Shown here: in pieces, positions 7,427 through 63,334 of the stretch
Position numbering within the stretch: the first letter of the stretch is position 1
Layout: each line of letters begins with the position of its first letter
Assembly (NCBI GenBank): GCA_018668595.1
Contig: JABJCP010000026.1
Location: 323 to 64,322, forward strand
DNA length: 64,000 nt
Direction of reading: 5' to 3'
From: Candidatus Woesearchaeota archaeon
Lineage (GTDB): Archaea > Nanobdellota > Nanobdellia > Woesearchaeales > UBA11576
Translations under genes and position numbers: made by a program
The notes under the pieces: generated by a model
The model's input: the letters and a program-made list of their open reading frames with translations, nothing else
What the model was told of the DNA's origin: nothing
Databases searched by the model: none

Positions 7427-8515
7427 TCAAAATCCATCTATTGATTTAAGTTCAGAATATATTCGCCCAAATGAATCTTGTCTCACTTGTTTTATTGTTT
7501 CACACAAATCTTCTTTTTCCCAATTAGGTCTTGAAAGAACATCATAAACTAGTAGTCGTCGTATAAATTTACAAATTGGATCTGGAACACAGTCTGGAAC
7601 TCGTTTAGATTTTACATCTCCGCCTAGCGCATAGATCATAGTCATTCCAAGTGAATAAAAATCTGATTCTGGAAGTAAGGGTTGAGATCTTTTTTGTTCA
7701 GGCGGTGCAAAAAAAGGAGTGTATCCTTTATTCTTAGAACTATTTTGAGGATTTATCATGGATAGTCCATAATCGACGAGAACCACTGTGTGCTTTTCTG
7801 GTTGAACAATAACATTTTGTGGTTTTACATCTCCGTGTACAACTCCATGAAAATGCAAGTACTTCAATATATTTAAAGTTCGTTCTGCTATCCATGCTAC
7901 ATGTTCTGGATCTAGTTTTTTTGTTTTTTTAACGATTTGTTCTAATGTTGGTCCAGGAATATAACTCATAATTAATGCAGGACTTCCATCTTCAAGTTTC
8001 ATAACATCTTTTACTGCAGGTATTCCAAAATGTCTCAAATCCCACATTGCTTTTGCTTCTTCAAATAGAATTTCTGTATCTTGAGGAGAAACAAAATGTC
8101 CATGTTTTATACAAATAGGCGTGTTCAAATGTATGTGTTCTCCTTTGTATGTTTTTCCAAATCCTCCTTCTGCAATCAATTCTGTTACTTTATATTCTCC
8201 GACTATTTTTCCAAGCAAAGTATTTCTGTTTTGATCATATTCTGCTCTTTTATCGTCGTCTAATAAAACTGATTTTGCTGTATTTAAAATTTCAATAATT
8301 CTTTCTTCATTTACTTCTTCATCAACAGAATTAGAATATTCACTCAGTAAAGTATTATACGCTGCTTCAATTACTTCAGATCTTGCTCTCGGACTAACTT
8401 CTAAAATATCGTATAGATTAATTTTCGCAATATCTAAATCAGATTTGATAGCTGATTTAGTCTTTATTTTATTTTCTACTTTTTTCATTTTTGATTTAGT
8501 TTCTTTTTTTTTCAT
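7427..8515 (-). CDS. J-domain-like (HPD-less) / Ser-Thr protein kinase fusion
   Basis: NLYDILEV...IEAAY...AKSVLLDDDKRAEYD is J-like but lacks HPD. Kinase motifs AEGGFGKTY, CIK, HGDVKPQN, DYG, APPE and DFYSLG. Start placed at ATG 8515 (alternative 8488) because the upstream extension is A-rich low complexity. Confidence 0.85.
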   Translation of the reverse strand: MKKKETKSKMKKVENKIKTKSAIKSDLDIAKINLYDILEVSPRARSEVIEAAYNTLLSEYSNSVDEEVNEERIIEILNTAKSVLLDDDKRAEYDQNRNTLLGKIVGEYKVTELIAEGGFGKTYKGEHIHLNTPICIKHGHFVSPQDTEILFEEAKAMWDLRHFGIPAVKDVMKLEDGSPALIMSYIPGPTLEQIVKKTKKLDPEHVAWIAERTLNILKYLHFHGVVHGDVKPQNVIVQPEKHTVVLVDYGLSMINPQNSSKNKGYTPFFAPPEQKRSQPLLPESDFYSLGMTMIYALGGDVKSKRVPDCVPDPICKFIRRLLVYDVLSRPNWEKEDLCETIKQVRQDSFGRIYSELKSIDGF

Positions 8516-8875
8516 TTTTTGTTTTAATTGTTTTTTTATTTGTTTTTTTATTTGTGTACTGTATTTTTTTGTAGCTAAAGCTAATTTTTCCAGATTATCT
8601 AAAAACAATAGTCCCAACAATAGTTCACTAACAATATCGTACTAACAACAGTTTAGTAATTAATTTATCAATTCATAAAGTTTTTTAAAAAAGGTTAAAG
8701 TCGTCGAAAAAACATTTCAGCAGCAAAAAAACTATTTATCCATTATATTTACTATTAGACACGTTAGGAATATATTTGTGATGTATATTTTTAATATACT
8801 ACACGTTTTGTATATTCAATAGCACCCATTAACCCAAAAACTATTTAAACAAAACCAGTTTCCAAAATAAATAAT

Positions 8876-16701: not shown

Positions 16702-17061
16702 TTAAGAAGTGGATTCTGAGTGTCCTCTGTCTGTGTGTTTATCTGTATGACCTCTATTAAAATTATCAATATGAATTTCTGAGTGATAAGGTCCCGCACC
16801 ATAATCTTGATACGAACCTCCTTCATCAGTATGTTGATCTCTATGATTATCTGAATGATCATGATGATCATTATATTCAGAATATTCTCTTTTTTGTCGC
16901 CTATTATAATCAGTATGAGGTGCTTTTTCTTTGTAAAAAAACATAAATTTGTCTTTGTTTTCTATTCTTTGTTTTATAACTCGTTTAAGTTTATGATTGG
17001 AAATTTCATTCAAGTCTATTTTATTTCCTTTTATATTTATTAAATTTTTTTCTAAACTCAT
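16702..17061 (-). CDS. Putative RiPP precursor with repeated (H/Y)-x-(D/E) motifs (triceptide-like)
   Basis: Directly downstream of the rSAM gene. GGAGGG RBS lies 11 nt before ATG 17061; the track's GTG at 17070 is an alternative. Helical leader followed by about 13 H/Y-x-D/E triads. Confidence 0.75.
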   Translation of the reverse strand: MSLEKNLINIKGNKIDLNEISNHKLKRVIKQRIENKDKFMFFYKEKAPHTDYNRRQKREYSEYNDHHDHSDNHRDQHTDEGGSYQDYGAGPYHSEIHIDNFNRGHTDKHTDRGHSESTS

Positions 17062-17069
17062 TTTATTCA

Positions 17070-18263
17070 CTACCCTCCAACTTTTGCTTTATCTAATTCC
17101 ACGCCTATTTTTTCTGAAATATGTTTAAATAGAATTTTATAACTAGCACAGTAATAATCTCTGTCCGTTATTCTTCCTCTTCTCATATACGCGTTATGCA
17201 TACAACCAGAATTGCATATTTTTTTATATTCACAAGGTTGACAAACTTTCAAATTATCTGCTCTGTTTTGAAGTTGTTTTCTTTTTGCATTATTAATTAT
17301 TTCTTCCATGCTATTTTCATTAATATTTCCTATTTGAAATTCTTTTACTCCATCAAATCTCCCGCAAGGATAAACATCACCTTGAGGTCCTACCGATATA
17401 AAACTATTTTGACATGATGTTGAATAGTTACAGCCCCAAGGATTTTCTGTTAGTATGTTTCCTATTAGCTCTTCAAACGGATCTAATCTTAAATTATCCG
17501 AATCATAAAACCATTTATCAAATAAGTCCACCATTGCGTTACCATATTCTCTGGGACTTATGCCTAGATCTTCGTAATTTTTACATGCATTTCCTGACTT
17601 AATTAATGGATTAAGTTTCAAATTTATATCTTCTTTTTTAGCAAATTCATATATTTTAGTCAAGTGGTTTATGTTGAGTTTATTAACGACAACAATAGCT
17701 CCACCTCCAACTTTTCTTTTTTTTGCTTTTTTGATACCTCTTAAAATTTTTTTAAATGCGCTCTCATTATTTTTGAAATATCTGGTTTTGTCATTAATTT
17801 CTTTTGGACCATCTAAACTAAACCCTATATCAAAGTCATACTCTTCACAAAAATCCAAAACAGCATCAGTAATTAAAGTTCCATTAGATTGGAACCCATT
17901 CGTTATAGGGTGATACATTCTTTTCAATCCTTTGCTTTTTTTATCCCCTCCTTTTTTTCTTTCCGCTATTTTATTTATTATTTCAGCAGGAGTTGTTTGT
18001 AAGAAAAATTTTTCTTGTAGTTCTTTTGCGTTTTTGTAAAAATCAAGAGGTATTAGTAAAGGCTCTCCCCCATGCCAAATAAAACTAACACTTTTGTGAG
18101 TAGAAACTGTTTTGAATATTAAATTCTCAAGTGTTTTATTACTCATAACACCTTTTTCTGCATTTGAATCTATATAACAATAATTACAAGATAAGTTACA
18201 TAAATGAGTTGGTTTTACAATAACTGATAATCGCTTAAATGGTTTATAAGATTTTTTATTCAT
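17070..18263 (-). CDS. Radical SAM/SPASM-domain maturase
   Basis: CNLSCNYCY, WHGGEPL, QSNG, FSLDG; SPASM cysteines GCNYSTSC, GDVYPCGRF, C..CEYKKICNSGC and YYC. Confidence 0.92.
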   Translation of the reverse strand: MNKKSYKPFKRLSVIVKPTHLCNLSCNYCYIDSNAEKGVMSNKTLENLIFKTVSTHKSVSFIWHGGEPLLIPLDFYKNAKELQEKFFLQTTPAEIINKIAERKKGGDKKSKGLKRMYHPITNGFQSNGTLITDAVLDFCEEYDFDIGFSLDGPKEINDKTRYFKNNESAFKKILRGIKKAKKRKVGGGAIVVVNKLNINHLTKIYEFAKKEDINLKLNPLIKSGNACKNYEDLGISPREYGNAMVDLFDKWFYDSDNLRLDPFEELIGNILTENPWGCNYSTSCQNSFISVGPQGDVYPCGRFDGVKEFQIGNINENSMEEIINNAKRKQLQNRADNLKVCQPCEYKKICNSGCMHNAYMRRGRITDRDYYCASYKILFKHISEKIGVELDKAKVGG

Positions 18264-20320: not shown

Positions 20321-21685
20321 ATGAATAACATGGAACAAGAAATATTGTTTAAAAATTTGAATTTGAGTTCGCCAATAGAAAAAGCATTAATCAAACAAGG
20401 ATATACTATACCTACACCTATACAAGCAAAAGCAATACCTGGTTTATTAGACGGTAGAGATTTAATAGGTATTGCACAAACAGGAACTGGTAAAACTGCT
20501 GCATTTATATTGCCCATATTAAGCAAAATGACAGAGAACAATCCACGAAAAATTAAAACTTTAGTTATTACACCTACTCGAGAACTTGCTGCACAAATTG
20601 GAGAAAGTTTTAGAAAATATGGTGCATTTCTTAGATTTAGACATACTGTAATTTTTGGAGGCGTAGGTCAAGGATCTCAAGTTCAAGCATTAAATAAAGG
20701 AATCGACATTCTTGTTGCAACACCTGGTAGACTATTAGATTTAATGAATCAAAGAAAAATTTCTTTACGAGATGTAGAATTTTTTGTATTGGATGAAGCA
20801 GATAGAATGTTAGATATGGGATTTATTCATGATATCAAAAAAGTAATTGCAAAATTACCTTCTAAAAGACAATCTTTATTCTTTTCTGCAACAATGTCTT
20901 CTCAAATTAATAAACTTGCAACAACTCTACTTAAAGATCCAATTCATGTTGAAGTCACACCTCAAGCAACCACAGTCGAACTAATAAATCAACAACTATA
21001 TTTTGTTAATCAGACTTCAAAAGAACAATTATTACTCGAACTTTTAAAACAAAAGCATATCACTAGTGCTTTAATTTTTACTAGAACAAAACATCGAGCA
21101 AATAAAGTAGCAACATTTCTTAATAAAAATAATATCTTTGCTGATGCAATCCATGGAAATAAATCTCAAAATGCAAGAACTAAAGCAATTACTGATTTTA
21201 AAAAAGGTAAAGTCAAAGTATTAGTTGCAACAGATATTGCTGCTAGAGGAATTGATATAGATAATATTTCTCATGTTATAAATTTTGAACTTCCAAACGA
21301 GCCAGAAACTTATGTTCATAGAATTGGACGAACTGCTCGAGCAGGAGCAGATGGAACTGCCGTTTCATTTTGCGCAGCTGAAGAAAGAAGTTTTCTTAAT
21401 GATATTGAAAAATTAATAAAACAAAAAATTGAAGTTATAAATCATCAATATCACTCAGAACTAGCTAAAAATGCAGTAGGTGCAGCAGCTAAACCACCTC
21501 CAAAAGGTAAAAGATCATTTTCTAAAAAATCCAACTCTAGTAATAGATCAAAACCTAACTCTAAACATAAATCAGATTCTAAACCTAAATCAAATTCTAA
21601 AAATAGAAAACCATTTCCTAAAAAAGTTAAATCTCGCAAATCTAAACGCAAACCTCATAAATCTAAAAGAAACTCTAGAAGATAA
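20321..21685 (+). CDS. DEAD-box RNA helicase (RhlE-like) with Lys/Ser-rich tail
   Basis: Q motif [36 protein letters not shown] and [10 protein letters not shown]. Confidence 0.95.
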
Positions 21686-21849
21686 TCAATTTCTAAAAAA
21701 AGAACTACGTTAACATATAAACCACTAAAAAACCCTTAATTTACCACATACATTTATAAATAGGTGCAAATAGCTTTAATATTACTTAATTAGTGTTAAT
21801 TAAGCAATATCACCAAATAATAACAAGTAAACTAATACAAGGTAAAACA

Positions 21850-23559
21850 ATGGAAGAATTTAGAAAATTAGGATTATCAGAAAAAACTATTAAAATTTTA
21901 GAGAAAAAAGGATACACACACCCAACAGCAATTCAAGCTAAAGCAATTCCACTACTTTTAGAAGGAAAAAAAGATGTGGTTGGTCAATCTCAAACAGGAA
22001 CTGGAAAAACAGCAGTTTTTGCACTCCCAATTATTGAAAAAATTGATGAACGAAGCAGAACTGTTCAAGCAATTATTCTTACACCAACAAGAGAATTAGC
22101 TATCCAAGTTGCAAAAGAAATAGATTCATTAAAAGGAGATAAAAAAATCAATATTCTGTGCGTATATGGGGGTTCTTCAATTAATGATCAAAGAGCAAAA
22201 CTAAAAAAAGGAATAGATATAGTAGTTGGAACTCCTGGACGAATAATGGATTTGCAAAGAAGAAACTCCTTAAAACTCGATAACATAAAATATGCAGTTT
22301 TAGACGAAGCTGATGAAATGCTTAACATGGGTTTTGTTGATGACATCAAAACAATTCTAGAAAATACTCCTGAAGAAAAAAAAATGCTTTTGTTTTCTGC
22401 AACAATGCCTAGACCAATTCTAAAAATTGCAAAAACATACATGAGAGATTATGAAATTTTTGAAGTTGAACAAGCTCAAATTATAACAGAAACTGTTGAA
22501 CAGATTTATTATGATATAAATGCAAAAGACAGACTAGAAGGAATTAAACGAATAGTTGATTTTTATATTGATTTTTATGGAATTATATTTTGCAACACAA
22601 AAGCCACAGTTGATACTTTAACCCAACAATTAACAAAGTTAAATTATCATGCAGCAGCACTCCATGGAGATATTACTCAAGGTCAAAGAGAAAAAATTCT
22701 CCAGCAATTCAGAAACAAACACATCAAAATTTTGGTTGCAACAGATGTTGCAGCGAGAGGAATCGACGTAAATGACTTAACACACGTTATTAATTATTCT
22801 TTACCTCAAAGTCCAGAATCTTATGTTCACCGAATTGGTCGTACAGGAAGAGCTGGAAAAAAAGGAATATCTATTACATTAGTAATTCCTTCTGAAAAGA
22901 GAACATTAAAATTTGTTGAAAAAATTAATAAGTGTACAATTTTAAAACAAAAACTTCCTTCAGCAAAGGAAATTATTAAACATAAAGAAGCTCAAATTAA
23001 AACAATTATTAAAAATATTATCGCGGCAAATTCAGGTAAATCAAAAACATCAAAATATAATTTAATGGCAGAAGAACTTTTACAAGAAAATAGTCCTGAA
23101 GAAGTTATTTCTGCAGTTCTCAAATATAATTTCAAAAATGAGCTAGATGCTAGTAATTATAAAGATCTTTCTGAATATAAACCTGCAAAAAGTTCTGGTT
23201 CGGATAGAGGGAGACCTAGACGAGGATCAGGTAGAGACAGATCAAGTAGAGATAGATCTAATGGAAGAGGAAGAGATAAATCCGATAGCAGATCAGGACG
23301 AGGAAGATCCAACGACAGATCAAGAGGAAGATCCAGCGATAGATCAGAAAGATCTAGCAGAAGTAGATCTAGTGATAAACCAAGATCTGAAAGAAAACGA
23401 TCTGATAGACCAAAGTCTACAGATTCAAGAAAAAGTTCAGATGGTCGAGGACGAAGTTCTGAAAAATCAAGATTTAGCAAAACACATAAAAGTTCTGATA
23501 GACGAGATAAACCAAGTAGTAGATCAGGACCTAGGTCTGATAAGCGAAGATCAAGATAA
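21850..23559 (+). CDS. DEAD-box RNA helicase (DeaD/CsdA-like) with long Arg-Ser-Asp tail
   Basis: All DEAD-box motifs present (PTAIQ, QTGTGKT, DEAD, SAT, HRIGRTGRAG). Start placed at ATG 21850. Confidence 0.95.
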   Translation: MEEFRKLGLSEKTIKILEKKGYTHPTAIQAKAIPLLLEGKKDVVGQSQTGTGKTAVFALPIIEKIDERSRTVQAIILTPTRELAIQVAKEIDSLKGDKKINILCVYGGSSINDQRAKLKKGIDIVVGTPGRIMDLQRRNSLKLDNIKYAVLDEADEMLNMGFVDDIKTILENTPEEKKMLLFSATMPRPILKIAKTYMRDYEIFEVEQAQIITETVEQIYYDINAKDRLEGIKRIVDFYIDFYGIIFCNTKATVDTLTQQLTKLNYHAAALHGDITQGQREKILQQFRNKHIKILVATDVAARGIDVNDLTHVINYSLPQSPESYVHRIGRTGRAGKKGISITLVIPSEKRTLKFVEKINKCTILKQKLPSAKEIIKHKEAQIKTIIKNIIAANSGKSKTSKYNLMAEELLQENSPEEVISAVLKYNFKNELDASNYKDLSEYKPAKSSGSDRGRPRRGSGRDRSSRDRSNGRGRDKSDSRSGRGRSNDRSRGRSSDRSERSSRSRSSDKPRSERKRSDRPKSTDSRKSSDGRGRSSEKSRFSKTHKSSDRRDKPSSRSGPRSDKRRSR

Positions 23560-59165: not shown

Positions 59166-59945
59166 ATGAAAAAAAGAAAAAACATAGAAATTATTGTAAA
59201 ATTAAATAATGCAAGTTCACATCACGTACAAGAATTTGCTATACAGGAATCACTGGGCAACAATCAAAAAGCATTAATAAAATTATCATATGCAACTTCT
59301 TACAAATTCTATGCTAATATGTTTGATAAACCACAACTTGAAGATGATCAAATAGTTGAAAAAACAATTAGAGACATTGTTTCCGAGGCAAATTTTTGGC
59401 AAAATGAAGGACTTGGAAAAACAATTATCCATTTAAATTCACCCAACACCGCATATAATTTGCTAAATAAAGTAGGTAACACAATAAAAGATTATCCATT
59501 TTGGAGCGGATATTTCTTTGCAGAACATTGGGATAATAAAAATGCACTAAAAGTATTTAATAATTTATCAAAAAATAATCCTGTCAATTTGCATTGGCAG
59601 GGAAATTTACTTACAAAAGTCGGACGCTTTAATGAAGCATTAATACCCCTAGTAGAAGTTGCAAAAATGGAACCAAACAGATATAATCATTTTTCACATC
59701 TGGGTAATGCATATCGTGGTCTAGGTATAAAATATGAAGCAAAAATAGCATATAAGAAAGCAATTTCATTAATATTAAACAAAGAAAATATTGGGAGAGT
59801 TGAACATATTCACCTTGTAAGAAGTTATCATGGTCTTTCTCGTTTGGGCTTTAATGAATACCGTTTAGCTGAAGATAAACAGCAAAAAGAAGCAATTCGA
59901 ACTGGAACAGTTAGTAAACATGAACTCGAAAGAATCAAATTTTAA
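59166..59945 (+). CDS. TPR-repeat protein
   Basis: HWQGNLLTKVGRFNEAL...AKMEPN..HFSHLGNAYRGLG..EAKIAYKKA. Confidence 0.8.
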   Translation: MKKRKNIEIIVKLNNASSHHVQEFAIQESLGNNQKALIKLSYATSYKFYANMFDKPQLEDDQIVEKTIRDIVSEANFWQNEGLGKTIIHLNSPNTAYNLLNKVGNTIKDYPFWSGYFFAEHWDNKNALKVFNNLSKNNPVNLHWQGNLLTKVGRFNEALIPLVEVAKMEPNRYNHFSHLGNAYRGLGIKYEAKIAYKKAISLILNKENIGRVEHIHLVRSYHGLSRLGFNEYRLAEDKQQKEAIRTGTVSKHELERIKF

Positions 59946-59956
59946 TAGGCTAAAAA

Positions 59957-61108
59957 ATGACAAAAAATGAAGAATTACTTAATAATACAATCAGAACCTG
60001 TAATACTGGCACTATCAGCATAACTGCTAAAGTGACAAAAAGATGCAATATCAGACCTGCTTGTGAATATTGTTATGATTTCGAGGCACAATCCGATAAT
60101 AAGGAGTTCGATATGTCTACCCAGACACTTGACAATTTAATAAAAAAATCAGTAGGAAGCGGTGATTTTAATAGAGTTATTTTTGTATGGCACGGTGGTG
60201 AACCATTGGTTGTAGGGAAAAAGTTTTATCAAAAAGCACTTGAATTTCAGGATAAATACAATTCGGGAAAAGTTATTATCGAAAATCGATTGCAGACAAA
60301 TGCTGTTGCAATGGATAGAGCATGGATTAATTTTTTAAAAACTCATAATTTCAAGATGGAATCCAGCTTTGATGCATTTGATAATGATAAATCAAGAGGG
60401 AAGTCTCAACAAGTATTAAGGAATCTTTTGCTTGCAAAAGACATGGATTATGCTCCAGGAAATGTTATGTTTATTGTAACAAAAAGAAATGTTAATAGAC
60501 TTAAGGAAGCGTATGATTATTTCAATAAAAGGGAACTTAATTTCACACCTTCACCAATTATTTCGCTTGGTCAAGCATGTCAATATAAAGAATTATCTAT
60601 CACTCCAGAAGAATATGGTCATTCTGTAGTTGACCTCATGGATTACATTTTAAAGCAGCCAAAACCAAAGATCAAAGTACGTTTTATCGACGCTGTACTT
60701 CGATCAGTTCTAGGTTTTGAACAGAATTTATGTAGTCACGGTTTTTGTGCGTATCAATTTATTGCCAGCGAGTCAAGTGGTGAAATTTATCCCTGTGCAA
60801 AAGTAGATCAACCTGAATGGAGCTTTGGAAATATTAATGAACTTGACAAATTGTCAGACATTTTTTCAACAGAAAAATATAGAAAATATGGAACTGCAGC
60901 CACTAATAGATTAACTGATTGCCTAACTGAAAATAGCGGCAAACCCTGCGAAGTTTTTCAACATTGTAAAGGAGGTTGTGCGAGTAACTCACTTGCCGCA
61001 GGTGGATACTCAAAAAGAGATTTTTATTGTACAGCCTATAGAATCGTATTTAATCACGCTCTTAATGTTAGAGCTGAGTTATTAAAACAATTAAATAACG
61101 GAGGATAA
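59957..61108 (+). CDS. Radical SAM/SPASM-domain maturase (CX5CX2C variant)
   Basis: CNIRPACEYCY, WHGGEPL, QTNA; SPASM LCSHGFC, GEIYPC, HCKGGC and FYC. Confidence 0.92.
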   Translation: MTKNEELLNNTIRTCNTGTISITAKVTKRCNIRPACEYCYDFEAQSDNKEFDMSTQTLDNLIKKSVGSGDFNRVIFVWHGGEPLVVGKKFYQKALEFQDKYNSGKVIIENRLQTNAVAMDRAWINFLKTHNFKMESSFDAFDNDKSRGKSQQVLRNLLLAKDMDYAPGNVMFIVTKRNVNRLKEAYDYFNKRELNFTPSPIISLGQACQYKELSITPEEYGHSVVDLMDYILKQPKPKIKVRFIDAVLRSVLGFEQNLCSHGFCAYQFIASESSGEIYPCAKVDQPEWSFGNINELDKLSDIFSTEKYRKYGTAATNRLTDCLTENSGKPCEVFQHCKGGCASNSLAAGGYSKRDFYCTAYRIVFNHALNVRAELLKQLNNGG

Positions 61109-61110
61109 AA

Positions 61111-61296
61111 ATGGAAAAAATAAAAAAAGATTTGGATAAAATAGTAAAAGAAGCTAAGAAAGATTCAGCAGTACTGGAAAAATTAAATTTACCCAAACAC
61201 ATCAAATCGATTATAACTGAAGAAGCAGGATACAACCCCGCAAAGATAGGCGGCTATAAATCAGAAGGTAAGTGTGATCACCAGTATCACAATTAA
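61111..61296 (+). CDS. Putative RiPP precursor peptide
   Basis: 61 aa with a GGAGG RBS, directly after the rSAM gene. Helical leader followed by a Gly/Tyr/His-rich C-terminus (AGYNPAKIGGYKSEGKCDHQYHN). Confidence 0.7.
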   Translation: MEKIKKDLDKIVKEAKKDSAVLEKLNLPKHIKSIITEEAGYNPAKIGGYKSEGKCDHQYHN

Positions 61297-61328
61297 TTTT
61301 TTTTACTTTTTTTTGAGGAATTCAATAA

Positions 61329-62240
61329 ATGGAAATTATATATACTGCATCACCCTATGAAACATATCACGAAGAGATTAATAAAATGCCAAGTGTTTCT
61401 GGCATGCGATTAAATACCATATCTCAAATTAGTGAACCTTTAACTAATTTAATTTCTAGATTAGATTCTAAAATTGGAGAGAACAAACTTTGGATAGATC
61501 TTAAAGGGAGACAATTAAGAATCATTGATAAAAAAAGAACACCTTATCACATTGAACTGACATTAAACCACAAATTAACAGCAGATTTACCATTAAAAGT
61601 TGAGTTTAATACAGGAACATTAAAGGGTAGGATTACCCATGCATATGAGGATAAAGCAATATTGCTTGATTGTAAGTGGGATGATATTCGTGCAGGACAA
61701 TCTTTAAATATTACTCACCCAAGTCTTAAAGTTGAAAAATACCTGAGCCCTAGTTGTGAATTGTATATAAAAGCCGCAAAGAAATGTGGTGTTCATAATT
61801 ATATGTTATCATTTGCGGAAGAAGAATCAGATGTAAGTGATGTACTTGCTATTGATTCCGCAGCAAAGATATATGCAAAAATTGAAACAAAAAGAGGTGT
61901 TGATAATTTTGTTGAAAATGTATTCCCTAAATATAAAGATAGTATTCGGTTAATCGCTGCACGAGGAGATTTATTATTACATCTTAATTCAGCACATGAT
62001 TTAGATGATACATTAACAAAAATCATCAAATTTGATTCTAATGCAATTTTAGCTTCACGTCTTCTTGCAACCTCAAAAGAAAAAATTAGTTCACAAGATA
62101 TGTCCGATTTATTTTATATCCTGCGCGATCTTAAATATCAATCATTTCTTATTGGAGATGGAGTTAGTTTATTCAAACCCTCACTTATAAGAGCAATTAA
62201 CGCTCTTAATACTGTAAATTCAAAGGTTAATGAAAAGTGA
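61329..62240 (+). CDS. Pyruvate-kinase-like TIM-barrel protein (homologue of 5266..6357)
   Basis: MRLNT, IDLKGRQLRI, LTLNH, MLSFAE, AKIETK, AARGDL and ASRLL. Confidence 0.75.
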   Translation: MEIIYTASPYETYHEEINKMPSVSGMRLNTISQISEPLTNLISRLDSKIGENKLWIDLKGRQLRIIDKKRTPYHIELTLNHKLTADLPLKVEFNTGTLKGRITHAYEDKAILLDCKWDDIRAGQSLNITHPSLKVEKYLSPSCELYIKAAKKCGVHNYMLSFAEEESDVSDVLAIDSAAKIYAKIETKRGVDNFVENVFPKYKDSIRLIAARGDLLLHLNSAHDLDDTLTKIIKFDSNAILASRLLATSKEKISSQDMSDLFYILRDLKYQSFLIGDGVSLFKPSLIRAINALNTVNSKVNEK

Positions 62241-63334
62241 AAGCGAAATTACCTCAAATTAATTTATTGATGTCAGTTACAGGAAAGTGTAATCTTGCTT
62301 GCTCTTATTGTTACGTTAATAAAAAATCAGATGTTAATATGCCTGAAAATCTATTAGAAAATATTACAAAAAAAGCTTTGAATGAATTTAAAAAAGTGAT
62401 TTTCATTTGGCATGGAACGGAACCAACTATGCGTGGCATTGACTTTTTCAAATCCGCAGTTGAATTTCAAAAAAAATATTCTTTCAACAATGAAATTGAA
62501 AATCAGATTCAAACTAACCTTACTCTTTTTGATAAAAACTGGATTAAGTTTGCAAAAGATTCTGGTTTTATGGTTAACTTTTCGTATGATGGTAAGAATG
62601 CAAATGAATTAACACGACCCGGATCAACTAAGCAAATATTTAATAATCTGTCTTTATTACAAGCTGAAGGAATTTTTCCTTCATGTAATGTCGTTATTAG
62701 TCAAACAAATATTAATAATTTAATTGACATCAATAATGAATTAACAAAAGAGCATAATGTTTCGTTTTATATGAATCCTGCATATAATTATCATAATAAG
62801 AAAACATCTATATTTATTCCAGCAGAAAAATATGCTGAAGCAGTGAATAATATGTTTAATTATTGGTTCAATGATCAAAATGCTTCTAACACTGCACAAA
62901 ATAAATTATGTCAAAGTCTATTGACAAGCATACTTAGAATTAAAGGTGTAGAGAATGGAAAATATGTTGCACAACCCGCAAGCAGCTATAACAAATGTAC
63001 ATTTAATCATTGTTATGGCAAATTTTTAGGCGTGTTAGAAAATGGTTTGGTTTACCCCTGCGATAACTTTATTTCAGAAAAATCGTGCCTGGGTCATGTT
63101 TCTAGTGTTGAAAATTTGAGTGATTTTTTTAGAAAAGATGAGTTTAACAATTTAATTAGAAGTTACCATAAGACTAATGAAGAATGTATGCAGATATGTA
63201 AATGGTACCAGTTATGTAATTCAGGTTGCCCAAGTCACACTCGCGGTAAGAGAAAAGATCCATTGTGCAGGGCATATCAAAAAATATTTTCAAACGTTAA
63301 ATCAATTGTTGACAATAAAATTTTTGGAAAATGA
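62237..63334 (+). CDS. Radical SAM/SPASM-domain maturase
   Basis: CNLACSYCY, WHGTEP, QTN, FSYDG; SPASM KCTFNHC, GLVYPC, ICKWYQLCNSGCP and LC. GTGA overlap with the upstream gene. Confidence 0.9.
   Translation: MKAKLPQINLLMSVTGKCNLACSYCYVNKKSDVNMPENLLENITKKALNEFKKVIFIWHGTEPTMRGIDFFKSAVEFQKKYSFNNEIENQIQTNLTLFDKNWIKFAKDSGFMVNFSYDGKNANELTRPGSTKQIFNNLSLLQAEGIFPSCNVVISQTNINNLIDINNELTKEHNVSFYMNPAYNYHNKKTSIFIPAEKYAEAVNNMFNYWFNDQNASNTAQNKLCQSLLTSILRIKGVENGKYVAQPASSYNKCTFNHCYGKFLGVLENGLVYPCDNFISEKSCLGHVSSVENLSDFFRKDEFNNLIRSYHKTNEECMQICKWYQLCNSGCPSHTRGKRKDPLCRAYQKIFSNVKSIVDNKIFGK

Follow-up and report, generated by a model that had tools for sequence, protein, structure and literature searches.

What does a small gene encode when it begins just where a radical S-adenosylmethionine (rSAM) enzyme gene ends, and what might the enzyme do to its product? 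This question is raised by two adjacent reverse-strand genes in a 64,000-nucleotide stretch of contig JABJCP010000026.1 from a Candidatus Woesearchaeota archaeon (hereafter the window), in which the original prediction, made from the letters alone, saw an archaeal triceptide-like locus: a SPASM-type rSAM enzyme next to a peptide with about 13 triads of His or Tyr, any residue, and Asp or Glu. Both genes lie where they had been placed. The first (17070..18263, reverse strand) encodes a predicted rSAM/SPASM peptide maturase of 397 amino acids and stops with TAG at 17072-17070; the second (16702..17070, reverse strand) encodes a precursor peptide of 122 amino acids, running from a GTG at 17070 that overlaps this TAG by 1 nt to a TAA at 16702-16704. 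The alternative start, an ATG at 17061 that lies 8 nt past the rSAM stop and is the choice of public gene callers, yields 119 amino acids, and with either start the precursor begins within a few bases of the rSAM stop, as had been claimed. A GGAGGG read within the last rSAM codons (17073..17078, reverse strand) is a possible ribosome-binding site that may couple translation of the precursor to the enzyme gene; it stands 3 nt from the GTG and 12 nt from the ATG, neither of which is ideal. As judged from sequence comparisons, the locus most likely represents an archaeal version of the triceptides, natural products known from bacteria.

The precursor divides into two regions of distinct character. 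Residues 1-45 (16936..17070, reverse strand; …INIKGNKIDLNEISNHKLKRVIKQRIENKDKFMFF) are presumed to be the segment recognized by the maturase, and the string earlier read as a leader, IDLNEISNHKLKRVIKQRIE, occupies residues 18-37. Residues 46-122 (16705..16935, reverse strand) make up a core with 14 [H/Y]-x-[D/E] triads, which are the predicted crosslink sites. All 13 triads listed in the original prediction are present (residues 52, 63, 66, 69, 72, 76, 80, 87, 96, 100, 108, 112 and 117), and a 14th, YKE46, sits at the leader/core junction. The 77 core residues include 11 His, 16 Asp/Glu and 7 Tyr along with 5 hydrophobic residues, for a net charge of -6, and this composition does not account for the triads: 100,000 shuffles of the core gave a mean of 3.7, and none reached 14 (P<1e-5). 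Ten of the 11 core His are followed by Asp or Glu at +2, while the other registers are not enriched (one at +1 and two at +3). The core has no Cys, and the window peptide contains no Cys-X3-Asp/Glu motif of the ranthipeptide kind. As Tandem Repeats Finder reported only a trivial 9-bp x3.2 array, the triads do not constitute a tandem repeat at the DNA level, and we interpret their repetition as a selected motif rather than as a recent DNA duplication.

Short, of biased composition and without a match to any Pfam or NCBIfam family, the precursor could be taken for a chance reading frame in AT-rich DNA. A word-indexed homologue search with the peptide returned only itself, and few members, none of them named, were added by a profile search via the same index; phmmer and a leader hidden Markov model (HMM) were needed to find its relatives. 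Among 1.84e9 representative proteins, phmmer independently recovered 31 relatives at E<1e-3, none of which has a Pfam domain or a name beyond "hypothetical protein". Their consensus is M…G-x-x-I-D-L-x-x-I-x-N-P-x-L-x-R-V-x-x-x-R…F-L-F-x-Y-x-D-H-T-D…Y-S-D-Y-x-E-Y-x-D-H-x-D-H-x-D, in which the leader-like N-terminal region is more strongly conserved than the core: N25, L28 and R35 are each conserved in at least 90%, and F42 and F44 are invariant. The leader HMM, which was built from 16 leaders, iterated and spans 43 positions, matches the window precursor with 57 bits (E 2e-17) and nothing else in the 64-kb window. Moreover, the position of the gene is conserved and the identical precursor locus is present in 23 contigs that come from several metagenomes. 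These comparative data rule out a chance reading frame, to which we assign a negligible probability.

To follow the gene pair through other genomes, we collected loci that surround relatives of the enzyme, 80 from genomes and 80 from metagenomes. The leader HMM recovered 59 open reading frames (ORFs) neighbouring rSAM homologues, 53 of them non-redundant. A precursor was detected in 39 of the 55 loci with an enzyme that reaches 270 bits or more against that of the window, and in 28 of the 34 loci at 300 bits or more; in nearly all of the 39, it starts between -10 and +41 nt from the rSAM stop on the same strand. The downstream ORF is usually small, with an N-terminus like the window leader and a C-terminus rich in HTD, HSD, YSE and YTD, and it may be present in tandem (three copies in L001; two each in L004, L008, L009, L022 and L088). 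Homologous rSAMs thus do have a motif-repeat peptide beside them, as the original prediction expected, and its leader and aromatic-x-D/E triads are conserved. The family numbers at least 120 enzyme clusters (90% identity) at 353 bits or more, together with dozens of precursor clusters. These comparisons indicate that the gene pair belongs to a widespread, previously undescribed family.

This conservation also bears on a simpler reading of the locus, in which the small gene encodes an unmodified His-rich protein for metal binding or storage, the rSAM serves some other substrate such as a sulfatase, and their adjacency is incidental. Strings of HxD and HxE can bind metals unaided, and one homologue carries the name 'serine-type anaerobic sulfatase-maturating enzyme' in its JGI record. 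Such a reading does not sit well with a tight, same-strand and often overlapping arrangement that recurs across distant archaeal and bacterial lineages, nor with a conserved leader-like N-terminus and tandem precursor copies; in addition, no sulfatase domain was found among the 20 flanking proteins scanned, and the enzyme falls short of the threshold for anaerobic sulfatase-maturating enzymes (anSMEs). We thus consider an unmodified protein with an unrelated neighbour to be very improbable.

We next asked which feature of the cores is conserved, pooling motif statistics over the 53 non-redundant precursors. Asp or Glu occupies the +2 position after 66% of His (n=291), 62% of Tyr (n=276) and 46% of Trp (n=63), as against 9% for Phe and a background D/E frequency of 18%; at other offsets from His and Tyr, the frequency is 8-33%. 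HxD is the most frequent triad (150), followed by YxD (100), YxE (62), HxE (39), WxD (18) and WxE (10), with up to 18 triads per peptide, and most individual precursors exceed 2000 shuffles in triad enrichment. The middle residue varies: Thr and Ser together account for 42%, the next most common are Lys, Gly, Arg, Asp and Asn, and Ile also occurs. The conserved unit is an aromatic residue at position 1 and an acidic residue at position 3 with a permissive middle, as would be anticipated for a reaction between residues 1 and 3.

The enzyme has the features anticipated for a SPASM-type rSAM protein, with Pfam matches to Radical_SAM (PF04055; 3.3e-14) and SPASM (PF13186; 1.4e-10). Its CX3CX2C motif (C22/C26/C29) and eight SPASM cysteines (C278, C284, C300, C341, C344, C350, C354 and C372) are invariant among 35 aligned homologues, and each of the latter aligns with one ligand of the two auxiliary clusters in anSMEcpe. 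It has no N-terminal RiPP recognition element (RRE; RiPP, a peptide that is ribosomally synthesized and then modified post-translationally), as there is no N-terminal extension able to hold one. An AlphaFold2 model (predicted local distance difference test score, pLDDT, 87.9) is closest among solved structures to anSMEcpe (template modelling scores, TM, 0.77/0.83) and next to ChlB (TM 0.75/0.79), a triceptide synthase crystallized with its leader bound. A Lys-rich insertion of ~30 amino acids at residues ~88-118 (17910-18002, reverse strand; …AERKKGGDKKSKGLKRMY…) is modelled with lower confidence; homologues of 360-370 amino acids lack it, and it divides the profile matches into two stretches. 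Four close homologues (P0024, P0025, P0027 and P0120; 46-49% identity, 484-490 amino acids) carry C-terminal TPR domains (PF13424/PF13374), and the JGI name mentioned above belongs to one of these and is probably a misannotation.

Among curated NCBIfam models, the best match is DynA (NF041298; 316 bits, cutoff 450), followed by anSME (TIGR03942; 250, cutoff 349), TIGR04083 (184, cutoff 300), DarW (161, cutoff 650), YhhB (144, cutoff 445), DarE (142, cutoff 650), GrrM/OscB (140, cutoff 310), PapB (NF047865; 131, cutoff 340), AmcB (127, cutoff 425), FxsB (92, cutoff 370), HxsB (TIGR03978; 90.5, cutoff 370) and XyeB (75, cutoff 450). True DynA enzymes served as controls and score far higher on that model: 609 bits for the Photorhabdus australis enzyme (L038), whose downstream ORF ends WNSNVHSYRF, and 588 bits for that of L057. 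At the position of Asp277 in anSMEcpe, which we take to be the catalytic base proposed in the anSME structure paper, the window enzyme has Gly301, and Gly is found here in 32 of 36 members of its clade. Given the sub-cutoff scores, this substitution and the lack of a flanking sulfatase, the enzyme appears to be neither DynA nor anSME and is, by these comparisons, an unnamed lineage near both.

The likeness to anSME nonetheless lends some weight to a different chemistry within a genuine RiPP pair, such as anSME-like oxidation of Ser/Thr at position 2, giving an aldehyde or a ketone, epimerization, β-hydroxylation or oxidative decarboxylation of Asp/Glu. anSME ranks second among the profiles and first among solved structures, Thr or Ser accounts for 42% of position 2, and SPASM enzymes are chemically diverse. 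However, it is positions 1 and 3 that are conserved, with K, G, R, D, N and I also accepted at position 2; Gly301 replaces Asp277 and the anSME score of 250 lies below 349; and both DynA, the characterized relative, and ChlB, the relative in fold, form crosslinks. Ser, Thr or Lys at position 2 is likewise found in the HTK, dynobactin HSY and YKY cores. We regard chemistry of another kind as unlikely, and favour crosslinking between positions 1 and 3.

Several known systems provide precedent for such a crosslink. Triceptides are defined by an aromatic-ring to Cβ C-C crosslink between residues i and i+2, with a loss of 2 Da each (PMC11499958). The present locus has two of their features: its rSAM/SPASM enzyme lacks an RRE, and its aromatic-X-X motif is conserved. 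The defining crosslink is predicted; the enzyme passes no cutoff of a named model for three-residue cyclophane-forming enzymes (XyeB, FxsB, GrrM/OscB, YhhB and AmcB) and lies nearer to DynA and anSME than to classical maturases of triceptides. Known partners include Tyr C3-Asp Cβ for YxdB, Trp C7-Asn/Asp Cβ for OscB, His C2-Cβ for HaaB and YhhB, and His ring nitrogen-Tyr Cβ for DynA (PMC11002830), as well as His C2-Lys Cβ on the HTK motif of HtkB (PMC11499958) and the Tyr-Lys and His-Ser rings of MicB, among His-containing triceptides (PMC11499958, PMC12912966); the precedents cited in the original prediction, YxD- and His-containing motifs, were thus correctly described. The closest functional precedent is that of the YxD triceptides (YxdB, WP_226048651.1; Sugiyama et al. 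2022, as described in PMC11002830), which share the Tyr-x-Asp motif and an rSAM/SPASM enzyme, and whose Tyr C3-Asp Cβ cyclophane is exactly the chemistry predicted here for YxD and YxE triads. Compared by description rather than by the YxdB sequence, the present family differs in that His is the dominant aromatic residue, a single peptide may hold up to 18 triads and DPANN archaea are the main hosts.

For His, the enzymes HaaB (HAA), YhhB (HNR), HtkB (HTK) and MicB (HAS) join C2 of the position-1 residue to Cβ at position 3, are SPASM enzymes without an RRE and tolerate Thr, Ser or Ala at position 2 (PMC11499958, PMC12912966). Position 3 in these peptides is Ala, Arg, Lys or Ser, whereas it is acidic in the present family, and we found no report of His paired with an acidic position 3 among the literature searched. 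DynA, from the dynobactin locus of Photorhabdus australis, is the best curated model and has the same gene order, with the precursor directly downstream (L038); it joins His to Cβ of the +2 residue (H-S-Y), via nitrogen. The window enzyme, at 316 bits against a cutoff of 450 and 588-609 for true DynA, falls in a separate clade, and its peptide core is unrelated to WNSNVHSYRF, with many triads rather than two rings and an acidic rather than an aromatic acceptor. Cores of the dynobactin type were found in other clades only.

Three further systems are similar in part. The enzyme anSMEcpe (PDB 4K36-4K39), which abstracts H from a side-chain Cβ of its peptide substrate, shares a common fold, three [4Fe-4S] clusters and identical cysteine spacing, but the window enzyme differs in its score (250/349 bits), in Gly301 for Asp277, in having no nearby sulfatase and in having a dedicated leader-bearing peptide partner. 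In the freyrasin/PapB ranthipeptides, a SPASM enzyme acts on repeated C-x3-D motifs by abstracting H at Asp Cβ (or Glu Cγ) in each repeat. The partner atom in those peptides is Cys sulfur, whereas the cores described here are essentially without Cys, and the window enzyme scores 131/340 bits on PapB. Lastly, the His-Xaa-Ser system (HxsA-D, Haft & Basu) places repeated His-x-small/polar triads beside rSAM/SPASM enzymes of uncharacterized chemistry; it uses two paired rSAMs (HxsB/HxsC) with HxsD and has Ser at position 3, as opposed to one rSAM and D/E here, where HxsB gives 90.5/370.

We then placed the enzyme among its relatives in a single neighbour-joining tree of 145 enzymes, which carries no support values and is indicative only. 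In this tree, all D/E-associated enzymes form one clade, separate from a DynA clade of Photorhabdus, Pandoraea and others, whose cores are WNSNVHSYRF, WSGNVYTYRF, WSGNVYKYSF and HWNGNVHTYHYF. We had considered whether the Pandoraea loci (L057, L071 and L137) encode HtkB and rejected this, as their HWNGNVHTYHYF precursors and a DynA score of 588 bits mark them as dynobactin-like. Position 302 is Arg or Lys in all 36 enzymes of the D/E clade (Arg302 in the window enzyme) and Ser or Thr in the DynA clade. At position 183 (R183), the two clades with Asp as the third residue of the precursor triad have a basic residue, which the clades with Tyr there lack. Both residues are candidates that may be tied to the acidic position 3; the link is weak, since both positions are also basic in a Bacteroidales clade of unassigned substrate.

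Neighbouring clades have peptides of other kinds. One, comprising Ignavibacteriales, Thorarchaeota, Terracidiphilus and metagenomic members, has precursors ending …N[V/I]Y[K/R]YAFF(D) (L020:5128-5352, L027:4714-4932, L028:5025-5336, L101:3014-3271 and L105:1674-1874), with leaders that begin VLGKKID, like IKGNKID in the window. By their resemblance to the dynobactin C-terminus NVHSYRF, these may be undescribed dynobactin-like peptides, one of them in the metagenome-assembled genome (MAG) of an Asgard archaeon. A second clade has precursors ending …YDKHSDWGQQGQCGCVMGCLGG. In a Bacteroidetes/Ignavibacteria clade, the same type of leader is followed by a single HSD or HKD triad and then a Cys/Gly-rich tail, WGQQGQCGCVMGCLGG (L047:3008-3211, L053:5073-5279, L066:1320-1550, L126, L144 and L148). 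No leader-type peptide was detected beside the anSME-like enzymes of the Bacteroidales clade (L034-L133, from gut and rumen); that these are true anSMEs was rejected, as that of L048 scores 220 bits on anSME (cutoff 349) and 294 on DynA. Taken as a whole, the radiation appears to be one of leader-dependent peptide maturases, whose substrates place an aromatic residue two positions ahead of the one attacked in the sole characterized member.

Homology with DynA, fold similarity to ChlB and the motif rule lead us to propose a crosslinking mechanism. The precursor would be translated together with the enzyme, and its conserved leader of ~45 residues would dock on the anSME-fold rSAM/SPASM enzyme, which has no RRE. 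For each triad, reductive cleavage of S-adenosylmethionine would generate a 5'-deoxyadenosyl radical that abstracts H from Cβ of the position-3 Asp or Glu. The resulting carbon radical would add to the ring at position 1, at C2 of His (or a ring nitrogen, as in dynobactin) or C3 of Tyr, and an auxiliary [4Fe-4S] cluster would accept the electron so that aromaticity is restored. The product would be a His/carboxylate-rich peptide with up to 13-14 three-residue cyclophanes, each marked by a loss of 2 Da, from which the leader may be trimmed by a housekeeping protease, or which may act uncleaved. We think it reasonably likely that the two genes form a minimal RiPP cassette of a DPANN-type archaeon in which each triad becomes a three-residue cyclophane.

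Several observations weigh against this proposal. Sixteen of the 55 related loci have no detected precursor; some of these contigs end early, others belong to a neighbouring clade, and five of the 16 carry a dynobactin-like core instead. The enzyme is below the curated cutoff of every named family model, and the tree, besides its missing support values, includes none of the references YxdB, HaaB, YhhB, OscB and DarE. The frequency of Ser and Thr at position 2, combined with the likeness to anSME, leaves room for oxidation at that position, and the basic residues at 302 and 183 recur in the Bacteroidales clade. Finally, the 64-kb window contains no protease, exporter or immunity gene, which leaves maturation and export unaccounted for.

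That no protease or exporter lies near the locus had been stated in the original prediction and is borne out here. In all characterized triceptides, cleavage takes place immediately ahead of the first ring (PMC12912966). In eight related loci, a papain-like cysteine peptidase of ~210 amino acids (PF09778 1.9e-7, with a weak match to Peptidase_C39_2) directly follows the precursor (L093:5433-6065, L002:5562-6218, L024:5383-5994 and five more), and several of these have F-N-Y-G-D at the leader/core junction as a candidate cleavage site. Because these eight loci carry a peptidase, we attribute its absence to the window genome rather than to the family. Eleven loci have a ~506-amino acid protein (L018:3025-4545 and ten others) that flanks the enzyme, divergently upstream or downstream; it belongs to no Pfam family and has a Lys/Glu-rich C-terminal part. 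Neither the peptidase nor this protein has a homologue within the window. The upstream protein of 225 amino acids, earlier described as a "7-TM" (seven-transmembrane) protein, has ~6-8 hydrophobic segments, and a homologue was found in none of the related loci, for which reason we leave this multi-pass membrane protein out of the system. The same lack of conservation beside homologues excluded Taw3 and an α/β-hydrolase as parts of it.

The archaeal host named in the original prediction is supported by the genes around the locus and by the enzyme's relatives. Also encoded in the window are Taw3/TYW3, a diphthamide-synthesis protein, a NOG1-type GTPase, DUF5679 and DUF483, which indicate an archaeal host. 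At 42-62% identity, the closest homologues of the enzyme belong to MAGs labelled Woesearchaeota, Aenigmarchaeota, Pacearchaeota and Nanoarchaeota, with a bacterial minority from Verrucomicrobia, Syntrophaceae, Kiritimatiellae and Parabacteroides. The hosts of the family thus appear to be mainly DPANN archaea, along with some bacteria.

Elsewhere in the window, a second RiPP-like cluster spans 59166-63334 on the forward strand. It consists of a gene for a 259-amino acid protein of no family, an rSAM/SPASM gene of 383 amino acids (59957-61108; anSME 200 and DynA 189 bits, both sub-cutoff), a small ORF of 61 amino acids that starts 3 nt past the stop of this enzyme (61111-61296; …GYKSEGKCDHQYHN), a gene for a pyruvate-kinase-barrel-like protein of 303 amino acids and a second rSAM/SPASM gene of 365 amino acids (62237-63334), all on the forward strand. 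The 383-amino acid enzyme scores 154 bits against the 397-amino acid enzyme described above. Two adjacent DEAD-box helicase genes (20321-21685 and 21793-23559, forward strand) encode long, highly basic, Ser/Arg/Lys-rich C-terminal tails, and a gene at 7427-8620 (reverse strand) combines a DnaJ domain and a eukaryote-like Ser/Thr protein kinase domain in one protein. An Rfam scan of the window gave no match.

To our knowledge, the characterized triceptides, daropeptides and dynobactin are all bacterial. We found no description of an archaeal triceptide-like family or of a His-x-Asp motif in the full-text literature searched, a scope that does not extend to the sequence networks of Sugiyama et al. 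2022. This is a genuine family of considerable size, so far unannotated and largely archaeal, whose predicted chemistry builds on reactions already known. A metal-binding role for rigidified His/carboxylate pairs would be plausible. More speculatively, and with a low probability in our estimation, each His-x-D/E triad would form a new type of crosslink between imidazole (C2 or N) and an acidic Cβ, repeated more than ten times in a rigid imidazole/carboxylate array that serves DPANN archaea as a ribosomal metallophore, a metal buffer or a host-interaction factor. If a repeated imidazole-acidic crosslink of this kind is real, it would be the first characterized rSAM cyclophane RiPP class native to archaea; if YxdB falls in the same clade, the finding would amount to no more than a large extension of a known family into archaea. 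The compact two-gene system offers 13-18 substrate sites per peptide, and its position between DynA and anSME in sequence space would make it useful for understanding acceptor specificity (acidic, basic or aromatic) and the choice of ring atom (C-C or C-N). Because DPANN archaea live with very small genomes and rely on hosts, a peptide-modification cassette that is conserved among them is probably important to how they live.

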